A stretch of DNA of 64,000 bases from Candidatus Segetimicrobium genomatis (lineage in GTDB: Bacteria; Sysuimicrobiota; Sysuimicrobiia; Sysuimicrobiales; Kaftiobacteriaceae), in contig VBAP01000008.1 of NCBI GenBank assembly GCA_005882335.1, positions 346 through 64,345 on the forward strand, written 5' to 3'. Shown piece by piece: positions 23,288 through 64,000 of this stretch (position 1 is its first letter; each line of letters begins with the position of its first letter). Under the pieces are notes generated by a model. The model saw nothing but the letters and a program-made list of their open reading frames with translations, did not search any database and was not told where the DNA came from. Made by a program: the position numbers and the translations under genes.

Positions 23288-23445
23288 GGGAACGGGGGAA
23301 TGCGGGAACTGGGGAACGCGATACCGCGAACGTTTCCCTAGGGCTTCTGCGCGTTCCCGCGTTCCGCCCCGAGCGCGCGAAGCGCGCGTGGGGGTTCCCG
23401 CGCTCCGCCCCGAGCGCGCGAAGCGCGCGTGGGGGTTCCCGCGAT
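23288..23445. repeat. Two tandem copies of a roughly 43-bp unit (CCGCCCCGAGCGCGCGAAGCGCGCGTGGGGGTTCCCGCG), each with an internal CGCGCG-AAG-CGCGCG palindrome. A complementary GGGAACG-word arm lies upstream.
   Basis: E1alpha-E1beta spacer. Copies at 23357-23400 and 23400-23442. Confidence 0.7.
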
Positions 23446-32390: not shown

Positions 32391-32399
32391 TCCGGCTCC

Positions 32400-33470: not shown

Positions 33471-33510
33471 GAAAAAAGAGGAGCAAGGAGCGTGCCACGC
33501 CCGAATGGCC

Positions 33511-33657
33511 GTTGAAACGTTGGAAGGTTGAAGCGTTGGAATGAACCAGCAAGACTGATGAAACCCACGGAACGCGCTGAAGGACTGACAGACTGAAGGT
33601 CTATCGAGTGCCGAAGCGGTATCGCTTCAACGTTTCAACGCTTCAACGTTTCAACGC
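33511..33657. repeat. Intergenic hairpin element. (GTTGAAAC/GTTGGAAG)n on the left and (CTTCAACG/TTTCAACG)n on the right. It uses the same word family as 25811-25907.
   Basis: Arms at 33511-33543 and 33625-33657. Confidence 0.7.
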
Positions 33658-33659
33658 CG

Positions 33660-35027: not shown

Positions 35028-35042
35028 GGTGTCGTTCCGTCC

Positions 35043-36536: not shown

Positions 36537-36625
36537 ACGGCGCGTATAACCTCGCACCGGGTGCGGGTTCTCTCGCATCGCCATCCTAGAGCAAGTTTCG
36601 TGCCAGGCCTTTCCAAACAAAAAGG

Positions 36626-36737
36626 CGTCTTCAATGTCTCCAAGGTCTTCCGGGTCTCCCAGGTCAAGCCGAGTCTCATCGGGCGTAAGCAGGTAGACCC
36701 GGAAGACTTAGTAGACATGGTAGACCTTGTAGACGCA
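36626..36737. repeat. Intergenic hairpin element. (GTCTTCA/GTCTCCA/GTCTTCC)n on the left and (GTAGACC/GAAGACT/GTAGACA)n on the right.
   Basis: Arms at 36626-36662 and 36693-36737. Confidence 0.7.
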
Positions 36738-36746
36738 GTTTCGTTC

Positions 36747-38111
36747 TCATCCGGTCTCCGCCGAAATGTTGTGCTCCTGGATTCTTGTTTGGAGGGCGGC
36801 ACGGTCGATTCCCAGGACCCGTGCGGCCTCGTCCAGGTTCCACGCGGTCATCTTCAGGACCGCGTGGATATGCCGGCGTTCGACTTCACCAAGCGAGAAC
36901 GCCTTCGGGAACTTCGCCCCCGGGGACGGCTGTTCGTCCAGCCAGATCTCCTCGGTGTCGATGAGTTCCCCGGTGGCCAGAATGACCACGCGCTGGACGG
37001 TGTACTCCAGCTCGCGGACGTTGCCCGGCCAGTGGTGGCTACGCAGTCTCTTCATCGCCGCCGGAGTGAAGCCTTTGATCCGCTTGCCGAACGCCACCGC
37101 GTACTTGTTCAGGAAGTGGTAGGCCAGCACGTGGATATCCTCTTTGCGATCGCGCAGCGCCGGCAACTCCAGCGGCATGACGGCCAGCCGGTAGTAGAGG
37201 TCCTCCCGGAACCGGCTGTCGCCGATCGCCTTCTTGAGATCTTTGTTGGTGGCTGCCACGACGCGGGCGTTGACATCGATGGGCTTGTTGCCGCCAACGC
37301 GCTCGATGACCCGCTCCTGGAGCACGCGCAGCAACTTCACCTGCATCGACAAGCTCATGTCGGCGATCTCATCCAGGAAGACCGTGCCGTCTTGGGCGCG
37401 CTCAAACCGGCCGACATGGCTGGTGATCGCGCTGGTGAATGCGCCCTTCTCGTGGCCGAAGAGTTCCGTCTCCAGCAGCGTCTCGGGGATCGCTCCGCAG
37501 TTCACCACCACAAACGGGCCGTTGGCGCGCGGGCTCTGGAAGTGGATGGAGCGGGCCAGCAACTCTTTACCGGTGCCCGTCTCCCCGTAGATCAGCACGG
37601 TGGCATCGGTCGGCGCGACGGCGGACGCCAGCCGCAACACGTCGCGCATCTTTGGAGATTCCCCGACGATCCCCTCGAACTTGAATGTCCGCATCAGTTC
37701 CTGTTGCAGCGCCCGGTTCTCTTGCATCAGGCGGCTGCGTTCCAGCGCCTGGTTCACTACAATCATCAACTCTTCAGGGCGGAAGGGCTTGCCGACATAA
37801 TGGTAAGCGCCAAGCTTGATGGCCTGGATGGCGGTGTCGATCGTCGAAAACGCGGTGATGATGATGACCAGCGCGTCGGGGTTGTGCTCCTTGATCGACC
37901 GCAGCACGCTCATGCCATCGAGCTTGGGCAGCTTGAGGTCGAGGAGCACGAGATCGTAGCGGCCGGCCTTGTACTTGGCCAGCCCTTCTTCGCCGTCGAC
38001 CGCGGTCTCGACCGCGTAGCCGTCTTCGCGAAGAATCCTGATCAGCAAATTCCGGAGGTTCTCCTCGTCGTCGACGACGAGGATGGACGTGCCATCGGTG
38101 ACCATCAGCAC
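36747..38111 (-). CDS. Sigma54-dependent transcriptional activator (NtrC/FleQ-like: REC, AAA+ and Fis HTH)
   Basis: 454 aa with [15 protein letters not shown] (Walker A), the GAFTSA-type sigma54 contact motif (GAFTSAIT) and a C-terminal HTH. Confidence 0.9.
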
Positions 38112-38190
38112 TCTCTTCTTGGGCCGAAATGGGGGTCCTGCGGAGTTATACCTCTTCCGCGGGGAGGCTAGACGCTATGCAAAGCGTAGC

Positions 38191-38265
38191 CACTATCCAG
38201 TAACCAGTCGCCAGTCAATTCCTGAACTGTTTCTGGCGACTGGTGACTGGCTACTGGTGACTGCT
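38191..38265. repeat. Intergenic hairpin element. (CAGTAAC/CAGTCGC)n on the left and (GGCGACTGG/TGACTGG)n on the right.
   Basis: Arms at 38191-38216 and 38234-38265. Confidence 0.65.
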
Positions 38266-38373
38266 GTGAAAAAGCCCCGCCGTCCCTCTCCGTGCGGGCG
38301 GCGTCGCAGCGTCCCCCCTGAGGTTCGCCTGCACCCGGCTCCCGCGTTCGGAGTACAGAGACGGCGGGGAATC

Positions 38374-38739
38374 CTATCGTTTCCCGATCGTGATAACCCT
38401 TCCGAGCTTCGCTGCCACCGCTGCTAGCGCGGCCGGCGGAAGCTCCCGCACTGTGGTCCTGGTCTGGACGTCGACGACCCGCACGACCAGGCGGCGGGTT
38501 CGCTCATCAACGGCCAACTCCGCGATGAGGCGCGCGGACGGCGTGCGCAGGGTATCCTGCGCAAGTTCCGCGCCGGGGCCGGACGGCCCCATCCCAGACT
38601 GGTTCGCAGAACCTGGCAGAGCCAGCGCGTCGGCGATCACCGGCTCCAGCTGGAGCCGTGACGTCAGCGCCCGGCGCGCGCGCTCGAAGAGGTTGACGAA
38701 GTCACTGCCGCCCGAGGTGGAAGGCGTGAGCGTATCCAT
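38374..38739 (-). CDS. flaG: FlaG-family protein. The start was trimmed to MDTLTPS.
   Basis: The C-terminal LVVRVVDVQTRTTVRELPPAALAAVAAKL matches the FlaG signature (VvkVvD.eTgEvIRqiPpee). Confidence 0.55.
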   Translation of the reverse strand: MDTLTPSTSGGSDFVNLFERARRALTSRLQLEPVIADALALPGSANQSGMGPSGPGAELAQDTLRTPSARLIAELAVDERTRRLVVRVVDVQTRTTVRELPPAALAAVAAKLGRVITIGKR

Positions 38740-39125
38740 CAATTCAGCCGGGCCTGCGCCCGTGAGGTGCTGGCCGACGCGATCGCCGCCAGGGCAGGGG
38801 CCAGGACCCGCTCCGACCACAACGTGCGGTTGGCGCGCTCCACCGCGCCGAGGCCGCGGACCAGCGTGGCGATCTGCCGCGTGAACGTGGCCACATCCGG
38901 AACGTTTGTGGAAGTCTTGTGGCGCAGCTGACGGCGTCTGGCTTCCAGATCCCGCAGGGTGACGATATAGGCGGCTTCCAGCACGGCCAGGTCTGCGGCT
39001 TCGTCAAAGCGGCCCTGCTTCAGCAGCAGGTGCCGGGAGCGCGCCAGCCGCAGCAGTTCGCGGTGCACGGCCAACTCACGTTCTAGAATCTGGCGAAGCT
39101 GTCCGGCCGTGGAGCCCATGTGCAT
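38739..39125 (-). CDS. FlgN/FliT-like flagellar export-chaperone-like helical protein. The start was trimmed to MHMGSTAG.
   Basis: Helical, with leucine heptads (QLRQILERELAVHRELLRLARSRHLLLKQGRFDEAADL). Its position next to flaG supports the call. The family assignment is tentative. Confidence 0.35.
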   Translation of the reverse strand: MHMGSTAGQLRQILERELAVHRELLRLARSRHLLLKQGRFDEAADLAVLEAAYIVTLRDLEARRRQLRHKTSTNVPDVATFTRQIATLVRGLGAVERANRTLWSERVLAPALAAIASASTSRAQARLN

Positions 39126-39281
39126 GACACCTCGGACGTCACCAGGAAGAAGCCAGTCTGTAATGAGGAGCAATTCCTGTGCCACGTGGGCAGAATGCCG
39201 GGGCCAAGGGACCGGGGGACCAAGGGACCACGCAGCCATGTCTGCCTGGTCCCTTGGCTGCCTGGTATCTGCTCCCGTTGT

Positions 39282-50863: not shown

Positions 50864-51214
50864 TTACTGAAACTGCTGCAGTGCGTCGTCCAGAGTCCGG
50901 TGCAACGGAACGGTCTGGTCGACCTGTGTCAGCAACAGGACGCGGCGAATCACCGAGCGCTCGGGCACCACCAGGGCCAGCTGCTGCTGACTGACGCGCA
51001 GGCGTTCAGCCAGCTCCAGGATGAGGTGGACGCCGCGGCTGTCCAGATACGTCGTCTGCGACAGATCCACCACCAGGCCTGGCGCGGTGTTGGGGACGAC
51101 CGCGATGAGCTGGGCCCGGCAATCCGCTACATTGGCCAGGTCGATCTCGCCCTCGGGTGCGGCAATCGGCACGCCGCCCCGCTCTATGACCTTGACCATC
51201 GCCGTCACAGTCAT
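50864..51214 (-). CDS. STAS-domain anti-sigma-factor antagonist (SpoIIAA/RsbV-like)
   Basis: 116 aa with LDSRGVHLILEL, which has a phosphorylatable Ser context. Confidence 0.75.
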   Translation of the reverse strand: MTVTAMVKVIERGGVPIAAPEGEIDLANVADCRAQLIAVVPNTAPGLVVDLSQTTYLDSRGVHLILELAERLRVSQQQLALVVPERSVIRRVLLLTQVDQTVPLHRTLDDALQQFQ

Positions 51215-53304
51215 ACCGTCACCTGCCTTCGCGTACGACGCATTTGAACCGTGGTGCCGTCCGGTCGCGGAGTGACCGTCACGTGCCGCATCAGTTCCTC
51301 GATGAGCCGCAGGCCCCGTCCGCGGTTTAATCCGCGCGGCGGCCGCCAGCGCCCCCAGTCGCGTACGATCATCTCAACTTCCTGGTCGGTCATGGTGCCG
51401 CGTACTTCCAGGTCGCCATCCGCCGCCCCGTAGGCGTGCTCGATGACGTTACTGCACGCTTCACAGCACGCCACGAGGATCTCGTAGGCATCCTCGTCGT
51501 TGGTCTGCGCCGCCTCCATCCACCGCCGCAACGAATGCCGCAGCATCGGCAGCGACGCCGGGACGGCCGGCAGGCGGACGTGGAACCGCGCGGGGTCAGG
51601 GATCTCCGCGCGCAGCGCGAGGAGGGCGACGTCATCCCCGCCTGGACGGCCGCGGGTGACCTCGCCCAGCACACGGTCCACCAGCTCATCGAGATCCTCA
51701 GCGGGGGCTGAGGCGACAGCGTGATGCAGCCGGGCCAGGCCGTCGTCAATCGACGCGCCGCGCACCTCGATCAGCCCATCGGTATAGAGGAGGAGCGTGG
51801 TGCCGGGCCACAGTTGCGCCGACTGCTCATGGTAGGATGGCATCCGGAGCGCGCCCAACGGCGGGGCGCCGCCTTCGAGGTAGGAGGCCCGACCATCAGG
51901 CGCCACAGCCAGCGGCGGCGGGTGGCCGGCGTTGGTAAAGCGCACGGTTTGGGTGGCCGGATCGAAGATGAGGTACACCAGCGTGGCCATCTCACCGGGT
52001 TCGATCAGCAGGGCGAGTCGCTGCATCACCTCGGCCGGACTGTATCCTTCCACCGCGTAGGCCCGCAGCGCACTGCGGAGTTCAGCCATCAACGCGGCCA
52101 CACGCACACCCCGTCCGGCGACATCGCCCATCACCAGCCCTACCGTGCCGCGCGGCAGCGGGAAGAGATCGTACCAGTCGCCGCCGACCGCCTCCGGGCT
52201 GGCGGCCAGGTACCGGGCGGCGGCGGCAAGACCAGGGATCAAGGGAAGTCGCTGCGGGAGCAGGCTCCGCTGCAGCGTTTCCGCGATGCGCCGCTCTTGC
52301 TCATAGAGCCTCGCGTTGTCGATGGCCAGCGCCGCCCGGCGGGCCAGTTCTTCAGCCAGGGCCAGGTCGTCCCGCGTGTAATGGCGATTGGACTCGGCGG
52401 TGAGGAACGCGATCACGCCCAGCGTGCGGCCGCGCGCTACCAGCGGCACGATGATCAACGAGGTGGAGCCCAGCGTTCGGGCCACGCTGAGCTCCTCGGT
52501 ATGATCACCCAATCCGCGGATCCACTCCGCGGAAATCTCCGGCACGAGCAATGCCTGGCCGGTGCGCAGCACCGTCGCCGTGGGCTCAGACGCGACGGCG
52601 TTAAATGGATACCGCTCCAAGAGCTTCCGGAGCCGCTGCTCCTTGGAGGGCTCGGCGTGGACAACTTCCACGCGGCGCACCTGACCGTCGGATTCAGCCA
52701 GCGACGTGATGCACATGTCGGCCAGGCGCGGGACGGCCAGCCGTGCGATGCTCCTCAGCGTGGCCTCCGAATCGAGCGACGCGGTGAGGATGCGGCTGGC
52801 GTCGGCCAGGAACTGCAGTTCACGGGTGCGCTCCCGGACGGTTTGCTCCAGGTCGCTGGTGCGCTGCTCCAGCGTGCGCTGCTGTTCATCCAGCTGGCGC
52901 TTGTACTGCCTGGCCTGCATGGCACGGATGAGGGAGGCGACGAAGTACTCACGGTCAATGGGCTTTTGGATGAAGTCGTAGGCGCCGCCGCGCAGCGCCT
53001 GCACGGCAAGATCGTGCTCACCGTGTCCGGTAATCAGCAACGTCGGCGTGTCCGGCCGTAACGCCCTGATCTGCGCCAGCAGCGTCAGGCCATCGGTGCC
53101 GGGCATCTTGATGTCGGTGACGATGGCCTCGTAGTCAACCTCCGCGATGCGCTGCAGGGCCCGCCCCGCGGAATCGCAGGTCTCGATGCTCACCCCGTCC
53201 ATCCGCAACTGCAGCGCCTCCGGGAGCGCCTGCAGCAGCACGGGATCGTCGTCAACGAGAAGAATGAGTTTTGTGGAGACCCGTTCAGGAGCCTCCACAA
53301 TCAT
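51211..53304 (-). CDS. Fusion protein: REC, GAF, PP2C (SpoIIE-type) phosphatase and an RsbW-like anti-sigma kinase (HATPase_c_2)
   Basis: 697 aa with ATGA overlaps on both sides. REC (LLVDDDPVLL...VTDIKMPGTDG). The PP2C region has DVAGRGV. The C-terminal part is CCEACSNVIEHAY. Confidence 0.8.
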   Translation of the reverse strand: MIVEAPERVSTKLILLVDDDPVLLQALPEALQLRMDGVSIETCDSAGRALQRIAEVDYEAIVTDIKMPGTDGLTLLAQIRALRPDTPTLLITGHGEHDLAVQALRGGAYDFIQKPIDREYFVASLIRAMQARQYKRQLDEQQRTLEQRTSDLEQTVRERTRELQFLADASRILTASLDSEATLRSIARLAVPRLADMCITSLAESDGQVRRVEVVHAEPSKEQRLRKLLERYPFNAVASEPTATVLRTGQALLVPEISAEWIRGLGDHTEELSVARTLGSTSLIIVPLVARGRTLGVIAFLTAESNRHYTRDDLALAEELARRAALAIDNARLYEQERRIAETLQRSLLPQRLPLIPGLAAAARYLAASPEAVGGDWYDLFPLPRGTVGLVMGDVAGRGVRVAALMAELRSALRAYAVEGYSPAEVMQRLALLIEPGEMATLVYLIFDPATQTVRFTNAGHPPPLAVAPDGRASYLEGGAPPLGALRMPSYHEQSAQLWPGTTLLLYTDGLIEVRGASIDDGLARLHHAVASAPAEDLDELVDRVLGEVTRGRPGGDDVALLALRAEIPDPARFHVRLPAVPASLPMLRHSLRRWMEAAQTNDEDAYEILVACCEACSNVIEHAYGAADGDLEVRGTMTDQEVEMIVRDWGRWRPPRGLNRGRGLRLIEELMRHVTVTPRPDGTTVQMRRTRRQVTV

Positions 53305-54308
53305 GAGCGTGCCAGCGGTATCTGGATCACGAAGGTGGCACCCTCTCCTGGTGGGCTGATGGCCTCGATGGTGCCCTGATGGTCTTTGATGATTCCGTAC
53401 GCAATGGAGAGGCCCAATCCGGTTCCGTGACCGACGTCTTTGGTCGTGAAGAACGGGTCGAAGATCCGCTGTTCCAGTCCCGGGGGAATACCCGGGCCGG
53501 TGTCGCTGATGGCCATCTCCAGCCGGTCGTCGTTGATCGCGCTGCGGATACGGAGCACCTTTACCGGCGCGTCCTGCAGCGCATCCCGGGCGTTGGCGAG
53601 GATATTCATGAACACTTGCTCCAGCTGAATGGGACTGCCCGTGACCACCGGGTTGGCGGGACTGAGATCGAGCTCCACGGAGATCTCCCGCAGCCGCAAC
53701 TGCTCGCTGATCAGCGACAGCGCCCGCAGCACGACCTCGTTGATGGCCACATCCTCGTAGCCGACCGGGGCGAGGCGGCCGAAGGTACGCAGGTGCGAGA
53801 TGATCTCTGAGGCCTTGCGGACCTGCAGCACTGCCGCGTTGAGATCGGCCAGCACGTGCCCCTTGTCCTCCCGGCCCAACTCGACGAGGTCGATGACGTT
53901 GCCAAGGAATAACCCAATGTTGTTGAGGGGGTTGTTCAGCTCGTGCGCGATGCCGGTCGTGAGTTCACCCAGCGTGGCCAGCTTGCCCGCCTGCACCAGC
54001 TGTTCCTGCTTGTCGCGCAGCTCCCGCTCGCGCCGGGTGATCTCCTCCGTAGTTTTGCGCAGGTCGTCCATGATGTGGATCATCGCCTTCCGCGCATTCT
54101 CCAGCTTGAGGTTGGACTGGTGCTGGTCCTGGAGGATGTGCAGGAGGGCGCGGCGGTGGTCTTCGCGCAGGCGCAGCCGCTCATCGAGCGCCTCCACCTG
54201 CTCGCGCAGCCGCGCGTTCTTCAGGAGCAGCTCGGCTTCGCGCGCCGTCGCCATGGAGCCGGCGACCCGCCCCGCCCCGCCAGGCGACGCTGCCTGTGCG
54301 GTGGACAT
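53301..54308 (-). CDS. Cytoplasmic histidine kinase (coiled-coil, HisKA and HATPase)
   Basis: H-box ELTTGIAHELNNPLNNI, and G-box GLGLSIAYGIIKDHQGTI. Confidence 0.85.
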   Translation of the reverse strand: MSTAQAASPGGAGRVAGSMATAREAELLLKNARLREQVEALDERLRLREDHRRALLHILQDQHQSNLKLENARKAMIHIMDDLRKTTEEITRRERELRDKQEQLVQAGKLATLGELTTGIAHELNNPLNNIGLFLGNVIDLVELGREDKGHVLADLNAAVLQVRKASEIISHLRTFGRLAPVGYEDVAINEVVLRALSLISEQLRLREISVELDLSPANPVVTGSPIQLEQVFMNILANARDALQDAPVKVLRIRSAINDDRLEMAISDTGPGIPPGLEQRIFDPFFTTKDVGHGTGLGLSIAYGIIKDHQGTIEAISPPGEGATFVIQIPLARS

Positions 54309-55657
54309 CAGCGCGGTCCCCGCTCGGTCCGCAGACGCTCCACGTCTGCCCGCAGCTGTTCCAGCTCTTTTTCCAACGCGATCATCTTGAGCTCACGGCC
54401 GACGACGACTTCCTCAAATTTCTCCAACTCTAAGACCTTTTCTTGCAGTTCGGTGCGGGACTTCTCCAGATCGCTGACGACCTGCTCGTAGGCGCGCATG
54501 TCCCGCAGGATGCCGATCGCGCCGATGACTTTCCCATCCAGGTCGCGCAGGTTGCTGGCATTGAGCGTGGTGGGGATGACCTCGCCGCTGGCGCTGCGGG
54601 GGTTCAGGCGCACGTTGCGGGTCACACCCCGCTCCACGACTTCCCGCAGGGCGGCGACAAATTCTTTCGTCTCTTGGGGGGAGATGAACCGCGACAGCGA
54701 CTGCTCGATCAGTTCGTCCGGACGGAACCCCAGCAGCTCCGAACACGCGTCGTTGACCTGGAGGATCTTCCCTTCCAGGTCGGAGACGAACACCGGGTCC
54801 GGGGCGTTCTTGATCAGGCTTTCTGCGTAGGCGCGCGCTTTGTCCAACTCGCGCATGTCTCGCAGGATGCCGATCGCGCCGATCGCCCTCCCCTCTGCAT
54901 CCCGCAGGGCGCTGGCGTTGAGGGTCGTGGGGATGACCTCGCCGGTTGCACTCCGGGGGTTGAGGCGGGCGTCGCGGGTGACCCCCCGCTCCACCACCTC
55001 CCGCAGGGCTACGACGAACTCTTGCGTCTCTTTGGGGGAGATGAACCGCGACAGCGACTGTTCGATCAGTTCGTCCGGACGGAACCCCAGCAGTTCGGAA
55101 CACGCGTCGTTGACCTGGAGGATCTTGCCTTCCAGGTCGGAGACGAACACCGGGTCCGGGGCATTCTTGATCAGGCTTTCTGCGTAGGCGCGCGCTTTGT
55201 CCAACTCGCGCATGTCCCGCAGGATGCCAATCGCGCCGATCACTTTCCCATCCCCGTCCCGCAGCTCCGACGCGTTCAACGTGGTGGGGATGACTTCGCC
55301 CATGGCGCTGCGCGGGCTGAGCACAACGTTGCGCGTCACCCCCCGCTCCACCACCTCACGCAACGCCGCCAGAAATTCTTGCGTTTCATGCGCCGAGATG
55401 AAACGCGACAATGACTGCTCAATAAGTTCAGCTGGCCGGAACCCGAGCAGTTCGTATACCGCATCGTTGGCCTGCAGGATTTTGCCTTCGAGATCGGCGA
55501 CGAACACGGGATCCGGGGCATTGCGGATGATGATGTTCGCGTCTAGTTGGGCGTGGGCCCTGATCACCTCCCTCTCATCTTGCGCATCTTCCACAATCGT
55601 CTCGGGCAAGCCAACAGACATACCTGCCTTGTCGATGACACCTTTGCGTCTGGCCAT
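54308..55657 (-). CDS. Triple-PAS-domain protein with a C-terminal coiled coil. It is made of three near-identical tandem repeats of about 119 aa.
   Basis: NAPDPVFV(A/S)DLEGKILQ(A/V)ND...GAIGILRDMRELDKARAYAESLIK is repeated three times. The DNA repeat period is 357 bp. Confidence 0.8.
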   Translation of the reverse strand: MARRKGVIDKAGMSVGLPETIVEDAQDEREVIRAHAQLDANIIIRNAPDPVFVADLEGKILQANDAVYELLGFRPAELIEQSLSRFISAHETQEFLAALREVVERGVTRNVVLSPRSAMGEVIPTTLNASELRDGDGKVIGAIGILRDMRELDKARAYAESLIKNAPDPVFVSDLEGKILQVNDACSELLGFRPDELIEQSLSRFISPKETQEFVVALREVVERGVTRDARLNPRSATGEVIPTTLNASALRDAEGRAIGAIGILRDMRELDKARAYAESLIKNAPDPVFVSDLEGKILQVNDACSELLGFRPDELIEQSLSRFISPQETKEFVAALREVVERGVTRNVRLNPRSASGEVIPTTLNASNLRDLDGKVIGAIGILRDMRAYEQVVSDLEKSRTELQEKVLELEKFEEVVVGRELKMIALEKELEQLRADVERLRTERGPR

Positions 55658-56102
55658 CGCGGGATCCCCTTTCCCATCGCCGGGGTGTAACCCGGCGTCA
55701 GACCGGCGCCAACATCATTGATTTTTTCCCCCCGGAAGGCTGGGGTTAAACCCCAATTTGGGAGTAAAAAGGCCCGGGCCCGGCTCCCCCATACATGCCG
55801 TGGGGCCGGGCCAGGGTCTATCGTTTGAAATAGAGAAGGTTACAGACCCTACACTGTTTGCTCACGGGATGCTTGGCCGGGTCGACCGGGTCATGCTGGG
55901 TGCGCGCATCTTCCCGCCGTTGAGCGGGAGGCAGTGGGACGCTGAGGACTCCCCAGTTGCCATACGGAACAGGTGTTCATCAGTAATTTAGCCGATGGCA
56001 CCCGGGCCAAGACGTCATATGATCGGAGGAGAAAATTGCGCTGACACACATGAGATCAGGGCCCGCCAAAGTGTTTGTGGTGGGCACATACAGGCGCGGA
56101 GA

Positions 56103-56200
56103 GACCCCTTTCCGAACAGGCAAACCCGCCGCGAGGCGGGGACGCAAAGCCACGGGTCAGGGATCAACCTGACAGCCGGGCTGCCGAAGAAGGGGTAATG
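56103..56200 (+). ncRNA. c-di-GMP-I (GEMM) riboswitch aptamer, copy 1
   Basis: GGCAAACC, a P2 hairpin with a GCGA tetraloop, GGGACGCAAAGCC, and a P3 stem (CGGGTCAGG...CCTGACAGCCGGGCUGCCGA). These match the Vc2-type consensus. P1 is CCCCUU/AAGGGG. Confidence 0.7.
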
Positions 56201-56220
56201 TTTTTCGCTTCCACCGGAAC

Positions 56221-56250
56221 TGGCGGTCTCCCGCACAAAGGAGACCGCCA
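56221..56250 (+). promoter_or_regulatory. SD-sequestering hairpin (GGCGGTCTCC / GGAGACCGCC) directly upstream of the start codon. It is conserved in all three copies and is the likely riboswitch expression platform.
   Basis: A 10-bp perfect inverted repeat containing AAGGAG, ending at the ATG. Confidence 0.55.
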
Positions 56251-57995
56251 TGTTTTTGGCAGTTCGCAACGGATTCGCCCGTTCCGTTCTGGTGACATTC
56301 CTCACCTGCATGTTTCTGTTCCAACCACTGGGATCGATTGACGTGCTGGCACCTTCTCCCGTCTTTGCCCAGTCCATTCCGTACCTCTCGCAGTGGGAAA
56401 CCAACATGCGCACCTACGGTTCGCTGCACTGCGTCCTCGGAACGCTGGATCAGGTCTACTACGACGCCGAGCGCGTCTACTATCAGATCGCCGACTACAC
56501 CGGCGATCCCTCCTGGCTGAACTGCAGCCAGCTCGCCGAAACCGTCTACCGCGACCAGTATGTCCTGCCCAACAACGGCAGCGTCCCCGGCCACTGGAAC
56601 TTCACCACCGGCCTGCGCCTCGACGCCCAGCGCACCGCTGACGCCCAGTCCAAGACCGCCGCGGTCCTGCTCTCCCAACATGCCGCCTTCGCCACTGACG
56701 GCACCCCCCTGGCCTGGACCCAGAGCGCCGACTACAGCCGCGAGGTCGCCTACGCCGTCGTCAGCTACATCGACGCCCAGGCCCTGGGCGAGCCCTTGCG
56801 CCAGCGCCGCATCGATCTCGTCACCCAGGCCTACGACCACATGGCCCAGTGGTTCGTCCGCTTCGCCTGGCCCGGGCCCTGGCAGCAGAGCCCCCAGGAG
56901 ACCATCCGCCTGGCCCCGTTCATGGTCGGCCTCACCGCCCACACGCTGATCCGCGACTGGGAACAGACCAAAGACTCCCGCCTCATCCCGACCCTCCGCC
57001 TGGCCGCCGACTGGATGTGGGCCAACGCCTGGATTCCTTCCACCCAGGCCATGTGGTACGAGTTTCCAGATCAAGGTCAGCCCTGCTGTCAGGCCAGCGG
57101 CCCGGCGCCCGACTTGAACCTGCTCATTGCCCCCATCTACGCTTTCCTCTACCGGCAAACCGGCGAGACGAAGTATCGCGACGAAGGCGACGCGATCTTT
57201 GCCGGCGGTGTTGCGCAGGCGTGGCTCGGCGGTGGCAAGCAGTTCGATCAGAACTACTGGTGGAGCTTTGATTACGTGACGTGGCGATCCGCGGTGCCCG
57301 CGGCGGCTGACGCCATCGCTCCTGCCGTGGCCATCACCGCTCCGGCCAGCGGATCTACCGTGTCCGGCGCCAGCGTCACCGTTTCCGCTACCGCCTCCGA
57401 CAACGTCGGAGTCGTCGGTGTGCAGTTCACGCTCGACGGGACCAATCTCGGGACTGAGGATACGACCGCACCGTATGCGATCATCTGGAGTACGACCATG
57501 GTGCCAAATGGCGCTCACACCCTGACCGCCGTGGCGCGCGACGCCGCCGGGAACCGAACCATCTCTGCAGCCGTCGGCGTCACCGTCAGCAACACGGTCG
57601 CCGATACTATGCCACCGGTGATCTCGTCCGTCACCGCGGTGTCGGTTACCTCGTCCGGGGCCATCATCACCTGGACCACAAACGAGCCGGCCGACTCGCA
57701 GGTCGAGTACGGCCGGAACATCAATTACGGGATCGTCACGCCGCTCGACACCCGCCTGGTGACCGTACACTCGGTCATGCTCATCGGCCTGGCGGCGAGG
57801 ACCCCATATCACTACCGCGTAAAGTCCAAGGACACAGCAGGGAACCTCACCAAGTCGGCAGACTTCACGTTCAAGACGACCAGTTCCACCGCCGACGCCA
57901 CCCGGCCGCCGATCGCCCTGACAGCACCGATGCCAGCGATGACAATCATTTCGGGGACCGTCACAGTCTTCGGTAACGGTGGCATTCTTGCCTAG
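56250..57995 (+). CDS. Secreted multidomain protein, paralogue 1: signal peptide, conserved W-rich N-domain of about 330 aa (unknown, possibly carbohydrate-active), a bacterial Ig-like domain and an FN3-like domain
   Basis: 581 aa. The N-domain motifs are shared by all three paralogues (QWETNMRT(Y/F)GS(L/M)HCVLGTLD, WPGPWQQSP, QNYWWSFDYV). The Ig-like domain has SDNVGVVGVQFTLDGTNLG. The FN3-like domain has TWTTNEPADSQVEYG...YHYRVKSKD. Confidence 0.7.
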   Translation: MFLAVRNGFARSVLVTFLTCMFLFQPLGSIDVLAPSPVFAQSIPYLSQWETNMRTYGSLHCVLGTLDQVYYDAERVYYQIADYTGDPSWLNCSQLAETVYRDQYVLPNNGSVPGHWNFTTGLRLDAQRTADAQSKTAAVLLSQHAAFATDGTPLAWTQSADYSREVAYAVVSYIDAQALGEPLRQRRIDLVTQAYDHMAQWFVRFAWPGPWQQSPQETIRLAPFMVGLTAHTLIRDWEQTKDSRLIPTLRLAADWMWANAWIPSTQAMWYEFPDQGQPCCQASGPAPDLNLLIAPIYAFLYRQTGETKYRDEGDAIFAGGVAQAWLGGGKQFDQNYWWSFDYVTWRSAVPAAADAIAPAVAITAPASGSTVSGASVTVSATASDNVGVVGVQFTLDGTNLGTEDTTAPYAIIWSTTMVPNGAHTLTAVARDAAGNRTISAAVGVTVSNTVADTMPPVISSVTAVSVTSSGAIITWTTNEPADSQVEYGRNINYGIVTPLDTRLVTVHSVMLIGLAARTPYHYRVKSKDTAGNLTKSADFTFKTTSSTADATRPPIALTAPMPAMTIISGTVTVFGNGGILA

Positions 57996-58127
57996 GGGCC
58001 TCTGTATCGGTGGATCGGCTCCAGCAGGGTGTCGTCCAGGTCGGAGCACATCTGCACCGGTTAAGAAGGTGGGAGGCAGAGCCTGATGGCGGGAGGGCGT
58101 ATCCTCCTAAAGATACAACATGGTGAT

Positions 58128-58433
58128 TCAATGTTTCATCTCGGGCGGCTCGATGTTCTCAATCAGACCGGTTTCACTCCGCGCCTTGGACCGCTTCTGA
58201 AAGTACGTCAGCCGGGATTGCCCACGTTCCGACAGTCGATAGCGATAGACCCCTTGCTCACCGGCTCGCTCACGCGTCGCCAGCCCCTGCCGGACCAGAC
58301 GCAGCAGCCCCATCGCCGCGACTGAGTAGTGCACTCCGAACGCACGTGCGACACCGTTTGCATCCGCCTCGTCAGTATGAGCGAGGTACGAGAGAAGATC
58401 ATGCTTCTGAAGGCCACGCATGGAGAAGATCAC
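58128..58433 (-). CDS. Small winged-helix DNA-binding protein (101 aa)
   Basis: LLSYLAHTDEADANGVARAFGVHYSVAAMGLLRLVRQGLATRERAGEQGVYRYRLSERG is a wHTH pattern (MarR/PadR-like). The family is uncertain. Confidence 0.4.
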   Translation of the reverse strand: MIFSMRGLQKHDLLSYLAHTDEADANGVARAFGVHYSVAAMGLLRLVRQGLATRERAGEQGVYRYRLSERGQSRLTYFQKRSKARSETGLIENIEPPEMKH

Positions 58434-58619
58434 CCGCTAGTTGTTATATGGGCGAACAGCCGCTTTCTTGACAGGTAGGCTTCTCGTATGGTGCAATTCA
58501 AGGGAACCCCTTAAAAATCGGCTGGAATTCACCTGACTTGAGTCAGGGAGGTTTGGGGAGCGTTTATAGGATTAGTTTGTAGCAGTTTGCACAACCTATA
58601 GAGTCGCGGAACGACCCCT

Positions 58620-58716
58620 TTCCGACAAGGGCAAACCCGTCGCGAGGCGGGGACGCAAAACCACGGGTCAGGAGACGATCCTGATAGCCGGGCTACCGAA
58701 GAAGGGGTAATGTTTT
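58620..58716 (+). ncRNA. c-di-GMP-I (GEMM) riboswitch aptamer, copy 2
   Basis: Same architecture as copy 1, with compensatory or wobble substitutions in P2 (CGUC/GGCG) and P3. Confidence 0.65.
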
Positions 58717-58762
58717 CGGTCCCCCTGGACTGGCGGTCTTCCGCATGAAGGAGACCGCCATA

Positions 58763-61582
58763 ATGTTGTTGGCAGGACGTCGCGTCTTCACCCATCCGCT
58801 CTTCCTCGCGTGTCTCATCGGCGCATTCCTGTTTCAACCCATTGGGGCGGTCTCCATCTTTCTCCCTTCCGCTACCGCGGTGGCCCAGTCCATTGCCATC
58901 CCGCAACTCACCCAGTGGGAAACCAACATGCGCACCTTCGGGTCAATGCACTGCGTTCTCGGCACGCTGGACAACGCCTACTACGACGCCGAGCGCGTCT
59001 ACTACCAGATCGCGAACTACACCGGCGATCCGTCCTGGATGGCCTGCTCCCAGCTGGGCGAGACGGTCTACCGTGACCAGTATGTGCTGCCGAACAACGG
59101 CAACGTTCCGGGGCATTGGAACTTTACTACCGGCCTGCGGACAGACTACGAACACTCGGCTGACGGGACGTCGAAGAACGCCGCGATCTTGCTTTCGCAG
59201 AATGCGGCCTATGCCCGGGACGGCACTCCACTCGCCTGGACCCAGAGTGCGGACACCAGCCGGGAAGTCGCCTACGCCATTCTCAGTTACATCAATACCG
59301 AGGCTCTTGGCGAACCGCCGCGCCAGCGGCGCGTCGACCTCGTCAACCAGGCCTACGATCATATGGCCCAGTGGTTCGTGCGCTTCGCCTGGCCCGGGCC
59401 CTGGCAGCAGAGCCCCCAGGAAACCGGCCGCCTGGCTCCGTTCATGGTCGGGCTCACCGCCCACACGCTGATCCGAGACTGGGAGCAGACCAACGATCCC
59501 CGCCTCATCCCGGCCCTCCGGTTGGCCGCCGACTGGATGTGGGCCAACGCCTGGATCCCCTCGGCTGAGGCGATGTGGTACGAGTTCCCGGATCAAACTC
59601 AGGCCTGCTGTCAGGCCAGCGGCGCCGCCCCTGATTTGAACCTCCTCATCGCCCCGATGTATGCCTTCCTCTACCGGCAGACCGGCGAGACGAAATACCG
59701 TGACGAGGGCGACGCGATCTTCGCCGGCGGTGTTAAGTTTGCGGGGCTCGGTGGCGGCAAGCAGTTCGATCAGAACTACTGGTGGAGCTTCGACTACGTG
59801 AAGTGGCGAGCTGCGGCGCCCCCGGCCGCCGACACATTGCGGCCCACGGTGGCGATCACGGCTCCCAGCAGCGGGGCGACCGTGTCCGGCCCCAGCATCA
59901 CCGTCTCCGCCGTGGCCTCCGATAATGTAGGCGTCGCCAGCATGCAGTTCACGCTGGACGGAACCAATCTCGGCCCGGCGGTCACGGCCCTCCCGTACAC
60001 GCTGACCTGGAACACAACCACCGCGGCCAACGGATCGCACGTGCTCGCGGCGAAGGCTTCCGACGCCGCCGGCAACGTCGGATCCAGCGCGCCGGTCACG
60101 CTCACGGTGGCAAATGCCGACACGACCCCTCCCGCGGTCACGGTAACGACGCCGGGGTCGGGCGCGACGGTCTCGGGCGCGATCACGATCTCTGCATACG
60201 CCTCGGATAACATCGGCGTCGCTGGAGTCCAGTTTCGCATCGACGGGGCCAACTTTGGGACCGAGGTCAGCACGCCACCATTCGCGGTGGCCTGGAACAC
60301 GGCGATCGTGCCCGACGGCCTGCACACGCTGACCGCGGTGGCGCGCGACTCAGCGGGGAACAGGACGACATCGGCCGCCGTCAGCATCACCGTCAACAAC
60401 GGAGTCGTCACTGCACCTCCTGTAATCACTTCGGTCGCGGTCTCCACCATCACCACGTCCGGCGCTCTCATTGCCTGGGTGACGAGCGAGCCGGCCGATT
60501 CACAGGTCGAGTACGGTGCGTCCACGAGCTACGGGAGCGTGACCCCGCTCGATGCCGGCATGGTCACCGCGCATGGTGTCACGCTGACCGGGCTGACCGC
60601 CGGCACCAGCTACTACTACCGGGTCAAATCCAAGAATGCTGCGAGCAATCAAGCCGTCTCCGGGGACTTCACCTTCGCGACCACTCCGGCGGCCACCGGT
60701 CCGGCGCCCCAGGATTCGGGGAGTCCACCCCCGGCTCAAGCGTCCGGCAACGCAGCAGGTGGAACGTCTGGGGGCTCGGGAGTCGCCTCTGGTGGAGCCG
60801 CCGGAGGCGCCGCGTCAATGCCGGGCAGTCTCGCCACTGGCGCGACGGCCAGCCCGATTCCAGGAGCTCTTTCGGTCGAAGGAGCACCAGCGACAGCGCC
60901 GGCGCCACTCGCTGGAAATCTTCCCGTGGGATCGGCACCCGGTCAGGTCCAGAGTGTCGTCTGGAGCAACCTCGTGAACGTGACCGCCAGCGGCAGTTCT
61001 CTGACGAAGATTTCTGGCTGCGACGGCTGTCCCGATGCCGGCGCCGTTTCACAGCAACGGATCACCACCGGTGACGGGTACCTGGAGTTCACGGCCTCCG
61101 AAACGGCCACATGGCGTCGCATCGGCTTCACCAGCGGGAGCCCTGGCACCGGCAGGGGCGAGCTCCGCTTCGCGATCAGCCTCCGGCCCGGCGGCATCGC
61201 CGACGTGCGAGAGGGGGCGATGCTTCGCACCAACGCGACCTACACCCGCGGCGACGTGTTCCGCATCGCGGTCGTCTCCGGCACGGTCCGTTACTTCAAG
61301 AATGGGCGCCTCCTCTATCTCAGCGGCGCGGCCCCGAGCTACCCGCTCGAGGTCACGACGCTGCTGCTGAGCCGCGGGGCTACCGTGACACACGCGATGA
61401 TTTCCGGACGGCTCTCAGTGGGAACGTGGCTGCCTGTCCATCCGCGGCTGCTGGTGGCGTTCCCCCCGAGTCCACCTCTGGCAACTCGGTGCAGCCGCAA
61501 CGACATCTCGGCAGGGGTGCCCGTGCCCTGGGTCAGGGTGTTTGGGCCTAGCGACAGAGTCGAAGGAGCGAAGGTCGTGTAG
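58763..61582 (+). CDS. Secreted multidomain protein, paralogue 2: W-rich N-domain, two Ig-like domains, an FN3-like domain, a Gly/Ala/Ser/Pro-rich linker and a C-terminal beta-jelly-roll-like domain. The start was chosen at MLLAGRRVF by homology.
   Basis: The ORF in the track starts at 58745 (MKETAIM), which lies inside the conserved SD-hairpin. Homology to paralogue 1 favours the second ATG, at 58763. Confidence 0.7.
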   Translation: MLLAGRRVFTHPLFLACLIGAFLFQPIGAVSIFLPSATAVAQSIAIPQLTQWETNMRTFGSMHCVLGTLDNAYYDAERVYYQIANYTGDPSWMACSQLGETVYRDQYVLPNNGNVPGHWNFTTGLRTDYEHSADGTSKNAAILLSQNAAYARDGTPLAWTQSADTSREVAYAILSYINTEALGEPPRQRRVDLVNQAYDHMAQWFVRFAWPGPWQQSPQETGRLAPFMVGLTAHTLIRDWEQTNDPRLIPALRLAADWMWANAWIPSAEAMWYEFPDQTQACCQASGAAPDLNLLIAPMYAFLYRQTGETKYRDEGDAIFAGGVKFAGLGGGKQFDQNYWWSFDYVKWRAAAPPAADTLRPTVAITAPSSGATVSGPSITVSAVASDNVGVASMQFTLDGTNLGPAVTALPYTLTWNTTTAANGSHVLAAKASDAAGNVGSSAPVTLTVANADTTPPAVTVTTPGSGATVSGAITISAYASDNIGVAGVQFRIDGANFGTEVSTPPFAVAWNTAIVPDGLHTLTAVARDSAGNRTTSAAVSITVNNGVVTAPPVITSVAVSTITTSGALIAWVTSEPADSQVEYGASTSYGSVTPLDAGMVTAHGVTLTGLTAGTSYYYRVKSKNAASNQAVSGDFTFATTPAATGPAPQDSGSPPPAQASGNAAGGTSGGSGVASGGAAGGAASMPGSLATGATASPIPGALSVEGAPATAPAPLAGNLPVGSAPGQVQSVVWSNLVNVTASGSSLTKISGCDGCPDAGAVSQQRITTGDGYLEFTASETATWRRIGFTSGSPGTGRGELRFAISLRPGGIADVREGAMLRTNATYTRGDVFRIAVVSGTVRYFKNGRLLYLSGAAPSYPLEVTTLLLSRGATVTHAMISGRLSVGTWLPVHPRLLVAFPPSPPLATRCSRNDISAGVPVPWVRVFGPSDRVEGAKVV

Positions 61583-61606
61583 AGTTCGCGAGACACAAAA
61601 CTTGCG

Positions 61607-61700
61607 GAGAGATCCCTTGCGATAAAGGCAAACCCGTCGTGAGGCGGGGGCGCAAAGCCGCGGGTCAGGAGGTGATCCTGACAGCCGGGCTGCCGATGAA
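61607..61700 (+). ncRNA. c-di-GMP-I (GEMM) riboswitch aptamer, copy 3
   Basis: P1 covaries (UCCCUU/AAGGGA versus CCCCUU/AAGGGG in copies 1 and 2). P2 has a GUGA tetraloop. GGGGGCGCAAAGCC. The P3 stem is conserved. An SD hairpin (CGGTCTCC / GGAGACCG) lies before the ATG at 61778. Confidence 0.65.
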
Positions 61701-61777
61701 GGGACACTGAGACGGTCCTGCTGCGACCGGCGGCCTCCTGGACCCGCGGTCTCCCCGCCAACACAAAGGAGACCGTC

Positions 61778-64000
61778 ATGGTACGTGCCACTCGAGGTTC
61801 GTCCGTCCGCACCCTTCTCAGCGCGTGGCTGATCAGCATGCTGCTGGTCGGATCCACGGCATCCGGGATATTGCTCCCGCGCGTCGCCTTCGCCCAATCC
61901 GTTTCCATTCCGAATCTCGCCCTCTGGGCAACCCACATGGTCACATACGGTCAGGCGAACTGCGCGACGCTGGCCGACCCATCGGTGCCGTTCAGCCAGA
62001 AACTCAACTCCCAGAGCGGCGATGTCTACTACGATGCCGAGCGGGTCTTTTACCAGATCGCCGACTACGCCGGAAATATCGCCTATTGGAACTCCTGCGC
62101 CCAGGTCGCCGAAAGCATCTTTCGGGATCAGTACGTGATCCCCAACAATGGCTCGGTGTATGGCCACTGGAACTTCACGACCGGCCTGCGGATGGACTAC
62201 CAGCGCACCGGTGACACGCAGTCCAAGTACGCCGCGATCCTCCTGTCCCAGAACGCCGCGTTCGCGCGGGACGGAACCCCGCTCGATTACACCACCTCGG
62301 CCGACTACAGCCGCGAGGTGGCCTACGCCATCGTCAGTTACATCAACGCCCAGATTCTCGGCGAGCCGCTGCGCCAGCGGCGCATCGATCTCGTCAACCA
62401 GGCCTACGACCACATGGCGCAGTGGTTCGTGCGCTTCGCCTGGCCCGGCCCCTGGCAGCAAAGCCCCACGGAAACCAGCCGCCTGGCGCCCTTCATGGTC
62501 GGGCTCACCGCGCACGCGCTGATCCGGGACTGGGAAGAAACAAAGGACTCCCGCCTGCTCCCCATCCTGCGATTGGCTGCGGACTGGATGTGGCAGAATG
62601 CCTGGATTCCCTCGGCTTCGTCGATGTGGTACGACAGCGGAAGCATGGGGGCCGGAGCGCCGGACCTCAATCTCCTGGTCGCTCCCATCTACGCGTTTCT
62701 CTACCTGCGGACCGGTGAGACCAAGTACCGCGATGAGGGCGACGCCCTGTTCGCGGGCGGCGTGAGCTTTGCCTACCTCACTGGCGGCAAGCAGTTCGAC
62801 CAGAACTACTGGTGGAGTTTCGATTACGTGACGTGGCGGACCGCCGCGGCAGGACCAGCAGATACCACTCCTCCCACCGTCGCGCTCACGGCTCCGGTCA
62901 GCGGATCCTCGGTCTCCGGCGCCAGCGTCACCGTCTCGGCCAGCGCCTCCGATAACGTCGGCGTTGCCGGGGTCCAGTTCAAGCTCGACGGCGCGAACCT
63001 CGGCGCGGAAGACACCACGGCGCCCTATGCCATCTCTTGGAATACGACCGCCGCCAATGGCGCCCATACCCTTACTGCCGTGGCCCGTGACGCCGCCGGG
63101 AACCGCACCACCTCCGCCCCGGTCAGTGTCACCGTCAACAACCCAGTCGATACCACGCCGCCGCTGATCTCTTCTGTCGCCCTCTCGTCCGTGACGTCGT
63201 CTGGGGCTTCAATCAGCTGGACTACAAACGAACCAAGTGACTCGCAGGTCGAGTATGGTCCGACCGCGAGCTATGGCGGCGTGACTCCGCTCGACGGCGG
63301 CATGGTCACCGCGCATGTGGTTACCCTGAGCGGGCTGGCCCAGGCCGCTTTGTACCACTACCGGGTGAAATCCCGCGATGCGGCGGGCAACCTTGCCGTC
63401 TCCAGCGATTTCACCTTCACGACGCTTGCCCCCGATATCACCAGCGCGCTGCTAGGCTACTGGAAGCTCGATGACGGCAGCGGGGTCACAGCCGCAGATT
63501 CCTCAGGCAATGGGAACACGGGGAGCCTCGTGAACGGGCCCACCTGGACCACCGGCAAAGTCGATGGCGGATTGACCTTGGACGGCGTCAGCCAGTACTA
63601 CCCGCTGACAGTCGGCGCGTGGATCAAGACGTCCTCCACCAGCGGCGTGCGCGGGATCGTCAACAAGTACGTCCCCTTCTCCTCGAACGGCTGGGGGGTG
63701 TTCTTCAGCAACGGCAACCTCTGCGCCTGGTACTTCAAGGACTCGGCCAACTACGTCTATCCCGGCGGCGGCTGCCCATTCAACCTCGCCGGCTACAACG
63801 ACGGCCAGTGGCACCACGTCGCCTTCGTCGTCGACGCCGGCGGCGGCCATCTGTACGTGGACGCCGTGCTCAAGGCGAGCGTGGCCTGGACCGGCACGCC
63901 GGGCGCTCCCTCGACGACCCAGCCTGCTAGTCTCGGCGTCTACCCTGGCGGCGGGGCGGATGTTCCCGGCGGTCCCGGCGCCGGCGAGTACTTCCCCGGC
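61778..64000 (+). CDS. Secreted multidomain protein, paralogue 3: W-rich N-domain, Ig-like domain, FN3-like domain and a C-terminal LamG/ConA-like lectin domain. The 3' end lies beyond the window edge.
   Basis: MVRATRGS...signal...QSVSIPNLALWATHMVTYGQANCA... is homologous to paralogues 1 and 2. The C-terminal part (LLGYWKLDDGSGVTAADSSGNGNTGSLVNGPTWTTGKVDGGLTLDG) is LamG-like. It is not in the ORF track because it runs off the window. Confidence 0.7.
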   Translation, partial: MVRATRGSSVRTLLSAWLISMLLVGSTASGILLPRVAFAQSVSIPNLALWATHMVTYGQANCATLADPSVPFSQKLNSQSGDVYYDAERVFYQIADYAGNIAYWNSCAQVAESIFRDQYVIPNNGSVYGHWNFTTGLRMDYQRTGDTQSKYAAILLSQNAAFARDGTPLDYTTSADYSREVAYAIVSYINAQILGEPLRQRRIDLVNQAYDHMAQWFVRFAWPGPWQQSPTETSRLAPFMVGLTAHALIRDWEETKDSRLLPILRLAADWMWQNAWIPSASSMWYDSGSMGAGAPDLNLLVAPIYAFLYLRTGETKYRDEGDALFAGGVSFAYLTGGKQFDQNYWWSFDYVTWRTAAAGPADTTPPTVALTAPVSGSSVSGASVTVSASASDNVGVAGVQFKLDGANLGAEDTTAPYAISWNTTAANGAHTLTAVARDAAGNRTTSAPVSVTVNNPVDTTPPLISSVALSSVTSSGASISWTTNEPSDSQVEYGPTASYGGVTPLDGGMVTAHVVTLSGLAQAALYHYRVKSRDAAGNLAVSSDFTFTTLAPDITSALLGYWKLDDGSGVTAADSSGNGNTGSLVNGPTWTTGKVDGGLTLDGVSQYYPLTVGAWIKTSSTSGVRGIVNKYVPFSSNGWGVFFSNGNLCAWYFKDSANYVYPGGGCPFNLAGYNDGQWHHVAFVVDAGGGHLYVDAVLKASVAWTGTPGAPSTTQPASLGVYPGGGADVPGGPGAGEYFPG

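Follow-up and report, generated by a model that had tools for sequence, protein, structure and literature searches.

Does each of three paralogous genes in a soil bacterium carry its own cyclic di-GMP (c-di-GMP) riboswitch, and in which direction would such a switch act? This question is raised by a 64,000-nt stretch of Candidatus Segetimicrobium genomatis DNA (hereafter the window; assembly GCA_005882335.1, contig VBAP01000008.1, positions 346–64,345, forward strand), in which three long open reading frames (ORFs) for putatively secreted proteins are each preceded by a structured leader. The host is an uncultivated soil bacterium, represented by the metagenome-assembled genome (MAG) ‘ANGP1’ and found in UniRef as Candidatus Segetimicrobium. 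We scanned the entire window with the Rfam covariance models at their gathering thresholds and detected exactly three riboswitch aptamers, all on the plus strand, each located 60–80 nt upstream of one of the three ORFs. Every match covered the model of family RF03167 from end to end (positions 1–80 of 80): copy 1 at 56110–56189 (72.6 bits, E = 2.9e-15), copy 2 at 58621–58701 (70.8 bits, E = 9.1e-15) and copy 3 at 61618–61698 (73.0 bits, E = 2.2e-15). Together with their extended P1 helices, the aptamers occupy 56104..56196, 58614..58708 and 61613..61704, respectively. According to a preliminary description of this DNA, c-di-GMP-I aptamers of the Vc2 type stand before each of three paralogous genes for secreted proteins. 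The Rfam matches and the pocket nucleotides described below bear this out, with scores of 70.8–73.0 bits that all lie above the RF03167 gathering score of 59. We conclude that these elements are very probably c-di-GMP riboswitches, three independent members of class I (GEMM-I) that would each control one paralogue, and binding of c-di-GMP by the three leaders is predicted.

The full-length model alignments contained the P1–P2–P3 three-way junction with its conserved junction sequences, and P1 was unusually long, at about 11 bp. As had been claimed, GGCAAACC was found in all three copies and P2 was capped by a GNRA tetraloop in each, namely GCGA in copies 1 and 2 and GUGA in copy 3. Two further motifs that had been ascribed to all of the leaders were less uniform: GGGACGCAAAGCC was exact in copy 1, but copies 2 and 3 had AAAACC and GGGGCGC in its place, and GCCGGGCUGCCGA, which comprises the P3 3′ strand and J3/1, was present in copies 1 and 3 but read CUACCGA in copy 2. 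The segment described as receptor-like is really the P3 3′ strand, J3/1 and the P1 3′ strand. The reported change in P1 from CCCCUU/AAGGGG to UCCCUU/AAGGGA was real and represents one fully compensatory pair, the outermost of the helix (C-G to U-A). By contrast, the compensatory and wobble changes attributed to P2 and P3 were confirmed for the wobbles only, because no double change occurred outside P1 among the three copies; P2 differed solely by a one-sided C-G to U-G wobble, and P3 of copy 2 carried one G-C to G-U wobble together with one A·C mismatch, which was flagged by cmscan. Covariation from the three copies by themselves is thin. Since they hold just one compensatory pair, proof of the structure comes from the covariance model and from related leaders. 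Relatives were collected by scanning metagenome contigs with a 40-nt aptamer pattern in which A or G was permitted at the equivalent of Vc2 A47, which yielded at least 120 stretches, with 121 pattern matches among the matches listed; about 55 non-redundant metagenomic leaders were used for comparison, with 37, 46 or 54 leaders entering individual tests. In 37 related leaders the native fold was 88% paired, versus 37–50% when the partner columns were slid, and changes on both sides of a pair were observed in 50 cells versus 26 in shuffles, with none of 500 shuffles reaching the observed value.

The top-scoring Rfam family for all three copies was RF03167 (c-di-GMP-I-GGC) and not RF01051, the family named in the preliminary description, although its assignment to the canonical c-di-GMP-I class was right. 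In the variant nomenclature of Weinberg and colleagues from 2017, GGC reportedly stands for the nucleotides at positions 20, 47 and 92, and we read it as the pocket nucleotides because the RF03167 consensus prints G..G..C. Counting along the Vc2 sequence, we take model position 37 to be the equivalent of Vc2 A47, and assign G20 and C92 on the same assumption. In Vc2, A47 inserts between the two guanine bases of the bound ligand. RF03167 has G at this variant-defining position, so that its pocket reads G, G, C, whereas all three window copies have A and their pockets read G, A, C: G56119, A56146 and C56184 in copy 1; G58630, A58657 and C58696 in copy 2; and G61627, A61654 and C61693 in copy 3. 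The consensus in this region is ...GGGACGCGAAgCc..., where the copies have ...ACGCAAA..., a mismatch at that one position in each copy; in P2, the junctions and P3 they are almost identical to the model. The same nucleotide was A in 121 of the 121 metagenomic relatives among the matches listed, with either purine permitted by the pattern.

If the copies were nevertheless true c-di-GMP-I-GGC members, they would sense another ligand, or c-di-GMP with altered properties, and their top ranking in RF03167, well above its gathering score, would be explained directly. However, this score cannot discriminate the variant: RF03167 was also the best Rfam label, ahead of RF01051, for 20 of 21 other A47 aptamers, including ones with quite different P3 stems, and therefore reflects the common P2 and junction sequence, not the variant nucleotide. 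With A in place of the conserved model G37 in all three copies and in every listed relative, we reject membership in the variant and consider an altered ligand specificity of this kind very improbable. At the three window loci there were four lower-scoring matches from the same clan at or above their own gathering scores, presumably including at least one to RF01051, and at 20 relative loci there were 23; this number, about one extra clan match per locus, suggests that RF01051 also passes its threshold at these loci. The c-AMP-GMP type (GEMM-Ib) known from Geobacter, which shares the aptamer scaffold and has A at position 20, was rejected as well, as position 20 is G in all three copies. Judged by their nucleotides, the copies are thus ordinary c-di-GMP-I aptamers with the canonical G20/A47/C92 pocket, for which the Rfam label is misleading. 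They share with Vc2 and the c-di-GMP-I class (GEMM-I, RF01051) the three-helix junction, GGCAAACC, the GNRA-capped P2, ACGCAAAGCC, the pocket, and a position in the 5′ leader of secreted or surface protein genes. They differ in being nearest in sequence to the lineage modelled as RF03167, in the length of P1, and in a switching strand that consists of the P1 5′ strand and the upstream flank.

We then consider how the aptamers could be coupled to expression. In all three copies, the predicted folds placed the Shine–Dalgarno (SD) sequence GGAG and the start codon within the 3′ arm of a 10–11 bp hairpin. In copy 1, this SD- and start-sequestering hairpin has 11 bp and spans 56221..56260 (SD at 56240–56243, ATG at 56250), with a UGUUUUUGG tail that gives it the appearance of a terminator; in copy 2 it spans 58731..58765 (SD at 58750–58753, likely ATG at 58763) and has the tail UAAUGUUGUU. 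The probability that the SD is unpaired was close to 0 in most of 55 leaders (mean 0.12 when folded freely and 0.15 with the aptamer enforced) and 0–0.15 in the three window copies, with a value near 0 in copy 1. Directly 5′ of P1 lies an 11-nt element, designated U, that is complementary to the 5′ arm of the SD hairpin and to part of its loop; because the match extends into the loop, it exceeds any resemblance between U and the SD strand. In copy 1, U (GCGGAGAGACC, 56096..56106) shares 3 nt with the outer P1 5′ strand and is proposed to be the 5′ strand of an anti-sequestor. It is complementary, with one bulged A, to 56225–56234 (GGUCUCCCGC), and pairs with this segment when the SD is forced open and also in transcripts ending just before the SD. 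In the same two folds, the linker CGGAA (P1*, 56215..56219) pairs as the alternative partner of the inner P1 5′ strand UUCCG; a CGGGAA-like motif is conserved in the relatives. In copy 2, U (GCGGAACGACC, 58606..58616) is complementary to 58735–58744 (GGUCUUCCGC) with one bulged C. U and its partner vary in step, GAGA facing UCUC in copy 1 and AACGA facing UCUU in copy 2.

This layout was common to the approximately 55 non-redundant metagenomic leaders among the matches listed and allows two folds. State A combines the native aptamer and its P1 of about 11 bp with the 10–11 bp hairpin in which the SD and start codon are hidden. In State B, U and the P1 5′ strand pair with the linker CGGRA and with the anti-SD arm and loop, forming a 16–19 bp composite helix that encloses the aptamer and leaves the SD free. 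When the SD was forced open, the State B helix was the best fold in five of the eight leaders shown, copies 1 and 2 included. The pairing was assessed by a per-sequence permutation of duplex energies with controls, in preference to column counts in a MAFFT alignment. When U was paired with the downstream leader, the mean energy was −19.5 kcal/mol for cognate duplexes, −17.0 kcal/mol for non-cognate duplexes and −13.1 kcal/mol for shuffled U; none of 10,000 permutations was as good as the cognate mean, and the best partner was almost always the segment just 5′ of the SD. The cognate advantage was removed by reversing either strand and was just 0.7 kcal/mol in a coding-region control. Paired differences between leaders included GAAGACC/GGUCUUC, GCAG/CUGC, GAAGAGC/GCUCUUC, AAGCCGC/GCGGCUU, GGCGAC/GUCGCC, GAGGCC/GGCCUC and CGCGGAG/CUCCGCG. 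These results show that the leaders carry an SD-burying hairpin and that the complementarity behind State B is specific and conserved.

Because State B uses the P1 5′ strand, it excludes the ligand-stabilized native P1. In transcripts ending just before the SD, 40 of 46 leaders had State B as their minimum-free-energy fold, and in 45 of 46 native P1 did not form. The native aptamer could be imposed on these transcripts at a median cost of 4.9 kcal/mol, an amount that the binding of a nanomolar ligand would readily cover. We propose that, when no ligand is present, State B would form before the SD strand is transcribed and the gene would be expressed. Bound c-di-GMP would lock native P1 and withhold its 5′ strand from State B, so that the sequestering or terminator hairpin would then form and expression would be switched off. 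Kinetic control is known for GEMM riboswitches, which include both ON and OFF types (PMC9262584). A close parallel is Cd1 of Clostridioides difficile, an OFF switch with which the window leaders would share a kinetic co-transcriptional choice between a ligand-locked P1 with a terminator and a competing fold (PMC9262584). The window leaders differ from Cd1 in that the SD and start codon, by being buried, provide the main conserved read-out, and only some members have a U tract; in addition, their competitor helix draws on the 5′ flank and surrounds the entire aptamer. Canonical riboswitches with a two-fold platform and kinetic OFF control form, as a whole, the explanation that we judge best and reasonably probable. 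Repression as the sign of control, read from the predicted folds, can be stated with modest confidence.

Several results weigh against this explanation. A column-wise covariation count for State B in the MAFFT alignment gave no clear signal: pairing was 62.7%, a result matched by 72 of 500 shuffles. Shifts of register caused by indels in U are the probable reason. Equilibrium folding of the full-length RNA cannot separate ON from OFF, because the SD was buried with the aptamer enforced and without it, and State B lies 4–15 kcal/mol above the minimum-free-energy fold; the expressed state would therefore need a kinetic trap or errors in the energy model. In many truncated leaders, moreover, 8–15 U:anti-SD pairs can persist with the native aptamer enforced, which means that P1 and the U:anti-SD helix are not strictly exclusive. 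Finally, as regards termination, a U tract (at least four U in 8 nt) followed the hairpin in only 14 of 54 relatives, against a background of 4.3%, and copy 3 has none.

The persistence of U:anti-SD pairs is what an ON switch would use: c-di-GMP binding would fold P1, coaxial stacking of the U:anti-SD helix on P1 would follow, and the anti-SD arm would be kept off the SD. The lack of a spacer between U and the P1 5′ strand fits such stacking, an ON sign would be expected for surface proteins of the biofilm phase, and the downstream genes of many relatives encode surface proteins rich in FN3 or Ig domains. Other c-di-GMP riboswitches before adhesins are also ON, for example Bc2 with cap (PMC4933901). 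Bc2 and Bc3-5 of Bacillus thuringiensis precede a collagen adhesion protein gene (PMC4933901, PMC4759541) and resemble the window leaders in class, in having a secreted or surface protein as target and in the presence of several aptamers per locus; they are, however, arranged in tandem on one leader and are activating, whereas the window has three leaders, one per paralogue, with predicted repression. Against activation, the SD remained buried in the full-length RNA with the aptamer enforced, and the fold that frees it most strongly, State B, cannot coexist with native P1 because it takes up the P1 5′ strand. Among the folds examined there was also no apo structure that sequesters U and would keep the gene off without ligand. 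We therefore regard an ON switch as unlikely.

The equilibrium result, which gives the SD hairpin whatever the state of the aptamer, would also be accommodated if c-di-GMP were bound but the hairpin acted as a constitutive translational damper, with control exerted through Rho-dependent termination, RNA stability or processing and with State B being incidental. An effect on RNA stability has a precedent in Vc2, which is reported to act by this route (bioRxiv 10.1101/617340). An incidental State B is hard to reconcile, however, with a U/anti-SD complementarity that is specific, is kept across divergent leaders and reaches the hairpin loop, past any similarity of U to the SD strand; we consider this possibility quite improbable and retain kinetic repression through State B as the preferred reading.

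In copies 1 and 2 the hairpin may also terminate transcription, because a U-rich tail follows it: the pattern scan identified terminator-like elements at 56221–56250, followed by TGTTTTTGGC, and at 58731–58760, followed by TAATGTTGTT. Since many downstream proteins begin with Met-Phe (AUGUUU), we considered whether the SD hairpin is a universal intrinsic terminator. This was rejected, as the U tract was enriched but confined to a minority of the relatives, and termination is therefore proposed for copies 1 and 2 alone. In most cases a CAU immediately before the anti-SD arm pairs with the start codon, and Met-Phe (AUGUUU or AUGUUC) is very frequent at the N terminus of unrelated downstream proteins, as at 56250 in the window and at loci L003, L004, L014, L024, L027, L030, L032, L043, L090 and others. 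This suggests selection at the RNA level on the first codons, through extension of the hairpin, the U tract, or both.

Copy 3 departs from this scheme. Its U element (GCGGAGAGAUC, 61604..61614) lies 22 nt after the ORF2 stop codon (61582) and pairs with 61748–61758 (GGUCUCCCCGC) in the unconstrained minimum-free-energy fold. The anti-SD arm, loop, SD and start codon occupy 61748..61780, with GGAG at 61768–61771 and ATG at 61778. An insertion of 21 nt, missing from copies 1 and 2, includes a segment found in copy 3 only (GGCCUCCUGGACCCGC, 61732..61747) that is complementary to the P3 5′ strand. Free folds paired it with P3 and thereby unfolded the aptamer, and with the SD forced open copy 3 formed only the U:anti-SD part of State B, with this segment engaged in place of P1*. 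In these models the segment could thus be an ‘anti-P3’ element. The pattern scan predicted no terminator between the ORF2 stop codon and the copy 3 U element, and leader 3 is probably intercistronic. Because it begins so soon after ORF2 and lacks a U tract, copy 3 probably acts on translation only, within a bicistronic mRNA.

The controlled genes encode related multidomain proteins. ORF1 (56250..57995, 581 aa) is 100% identical to TMI76994.1 from MAG ANGP1 and comprises a signal peptide, a six-hairpin-like N-terminal domain, a Big_7 domain and an FN3/Pur_ac_phosph_N-like domain. An exact-protein look-up of ORF1 among the contigs gave no match, though the homologue database contains an identical protein (P0001). 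ORF2 (58763..61582, 939 aa) has the same N-terminal domain, two Big_7 domains, an FN3-like domain and a long C-terminal part that has no assignment; its start is most likely ATG 58763 and not the 58745 of the mechanical ORF list. ORF3 (61778..64000), which runs off the end of the window, has the same N-terminal domain followed by Big_7, FN3-like and Laminin_G_3 domains. All three ORFs are on the plus strand. Identity to ORF1 is 71% for ORF2 and 68% for ORF3 over the whole proteins, and 79% and 71% for the N-terminal domains. By eye, a signal-like N-terminal segment ending in FAQS or VAQS was found in all three. The proteins had been described as three tandem Ig/FN3-domain paralogues. They are paralogous, but not strictly adjacent, as ORF1 and leader 2 are separated by a minus-strand ORF for a 101-aa MarR/PaaX-like protein (58128..58433; MarR_2 match with E = 1.2e-4, below the curated Pfam cut-off); this ORF could encode a local regulator or be spurious. 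Likewise, Pfam found Big_7 and FN3/Pur_ac_phosph_N-like domains in all three proteins, and Laminin_G_3 in ORF3, but the domain label undersells the N-terminal six-hairpin barrel.

This N-terminal domain is the largest and best-conserved part of the proteins. Pfam gave no match in their first approximately 350 residues, and public data contained 686 homologues at E ≤ 1e-5, most of them unnamed proteins from soil metagenomes; two of the homologues have a GH127 domain as well. An AlphaFold model built with 43 sequences was all-helical and formed an (α/α)6 barrel, with a mean predicted local distance difference test score of 91.5 and a predicted template modelling (TM) score of 0.91; Foldseek matches were weaker (E = 4e-3, TM 0.55–0.65). 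Residues D37, D207, D253, D279, R129, R149 and H162 were invariant or nearly so. On the basis of this model, the domain is a six-hairpin (α/α)6 barrel, probably with an enzymatic role, and the products are secreted enzymes, probably acting on glycans, that carry Ig and FN3 modules. Compared with known six-hairpin enzymes (GH88, GH105/YteR and AGE-family epimerases), the window domain has no Pfam family, an identity of 10% or less, and a predicted catalytic activity only, and is fused to Big_7 and FN3-like domains behind a signal peptide.

The association of this aptamer with six-hairpin proteins extends to other lineages. It precedes homologues with 41–47% identity at L083, L100 and L116, and further homologues at L127 and L128, the L128 protein being assigned by NCBI to Candidatus Acidoferrum. 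The riboswitch was absent before the homologues at L001, L002, L123 and L126. A contig scan with protein patterns recovered two loci, in a Rokuibacteriota MAG and an Acidimicrobiales MAG, neither with a riboswitch, the peptide patterns having been too narrow. Six-hairpin homologues adjoin genes for polysaccharide deacetylases and sugar epimerases/dehydratases. The closest non-self homologue, P0009 (74% identity), lies beside a second ORF, of 350 aa (L123-L125 468-2553), and this pair is found downstream of a polysaccharide deacetylase gene and lacks a riboswitch. Aptamers of this sub-lineage also stand before genes for secreted FN3 and InlB-repeat proteins, for a beta-helix protein and for M12-like metalloproteases. 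The leaders most like the window copies (L091, L014, L003 and L027) precede a different secreted protein that has no Pfam match and whose repeats resemble a beta-helix by eye; the L062 leader precedes a protein with Beta_helix and Big_7 domains, and L008 and L080 precede M12-like metallopeptidases. Some relatives have more than one aptamer. L003 and L027 are on one contig (Ga0209378_1001398) and form two riboswitch-led genes in series, as in the window, and L118 has two riboswitches 2 kb apart (1-77 and 2031-2111). At L013 (871-1008) and L026 (1514-1651), a weak RF01051 match stands directly beside a strong RF03167 match, and these pairs may be tandem aptamers.

Elsewhere in the window, a regulatory cluster on the minus strand (31581-39239) comprises a sigma-70-family factor (31581-32390), a protein with GAF and degenerate GGDEF domains (motif GGGRF, 32400-33470), sigma-54 (33660-35027), a REC-GAF-HD-GYP protein (35043-36620), an NtrC-type sigma-54 activator (36747-38111) and a FlgN-like ORF below the Pfam cut-off (38739-39239), and looks like a motility and c-di-GMP control module. 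The degenerate GGDEF and HD-GYP proteins had been recognized in the preliminary description and linked to the leaders; their presence shows c-di-GMP use by the organism, but does not show a specific tie to the leaders, which are more than 20 kb away. A second signalling operon (51211-55657, minus strand) lies directly upstream of leader 1 and is divergent from it; it encodes a triple-PAS protein (54308-55657), a HisKA-HATPase kinase (53301-54308) and a REC-GAF-SpoIIE(PP2C)-HATPase_c_2 protein (51211-53304). An 811-aa protein with Cu_amine_oxidN1 and SdrD_B/CarboxypepD_reg domains (26363-28798, minus strand) is probably a surface protein. Two long ORFs had no Pfam match, 1903-3924 (plus strand, 673 aa), which overlaps minus-strand ORFs, and 22184-23860 (minus strand, 558 aa), and both may not be real genes.

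The three riboswitches are new, but the kind of control is well known and does not change in kind what is understood of c-di-GMP riboswitches. For annotation, pipelines that copy the c-di-GMP-I-GGC label in this abundant soil lineage would mis-assign ligand specificity. The leaders also offer a testable platform, since they carry a defined anti-sequestor upstream of P1. A broader proposal, which we make tentatively and regard as possible rather than probable, is that uncultivated soil phyla have a lineage-wide, RNA-only ‘dispersal regulon’, in which high c-di-GMP would repress secreted and possibly matrix-degrading enzymes (the six-hairpin family, beta-helix proteins and M12-like metalloproteases), each paralogue having its own riboswitch and each leader joining a long P1 and an SD- and start-burying hairpin to an aptamer-enclosing anti-sequestor made from the 5′ flank and the P1 5′ strand. 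For the six-hairpin family, which has no Pfam model, the riboswitches provide a regulatory handle, and the recurrence of the c-di-GMP link across lineages points to a role in remodelling extracellular polysaccharide.

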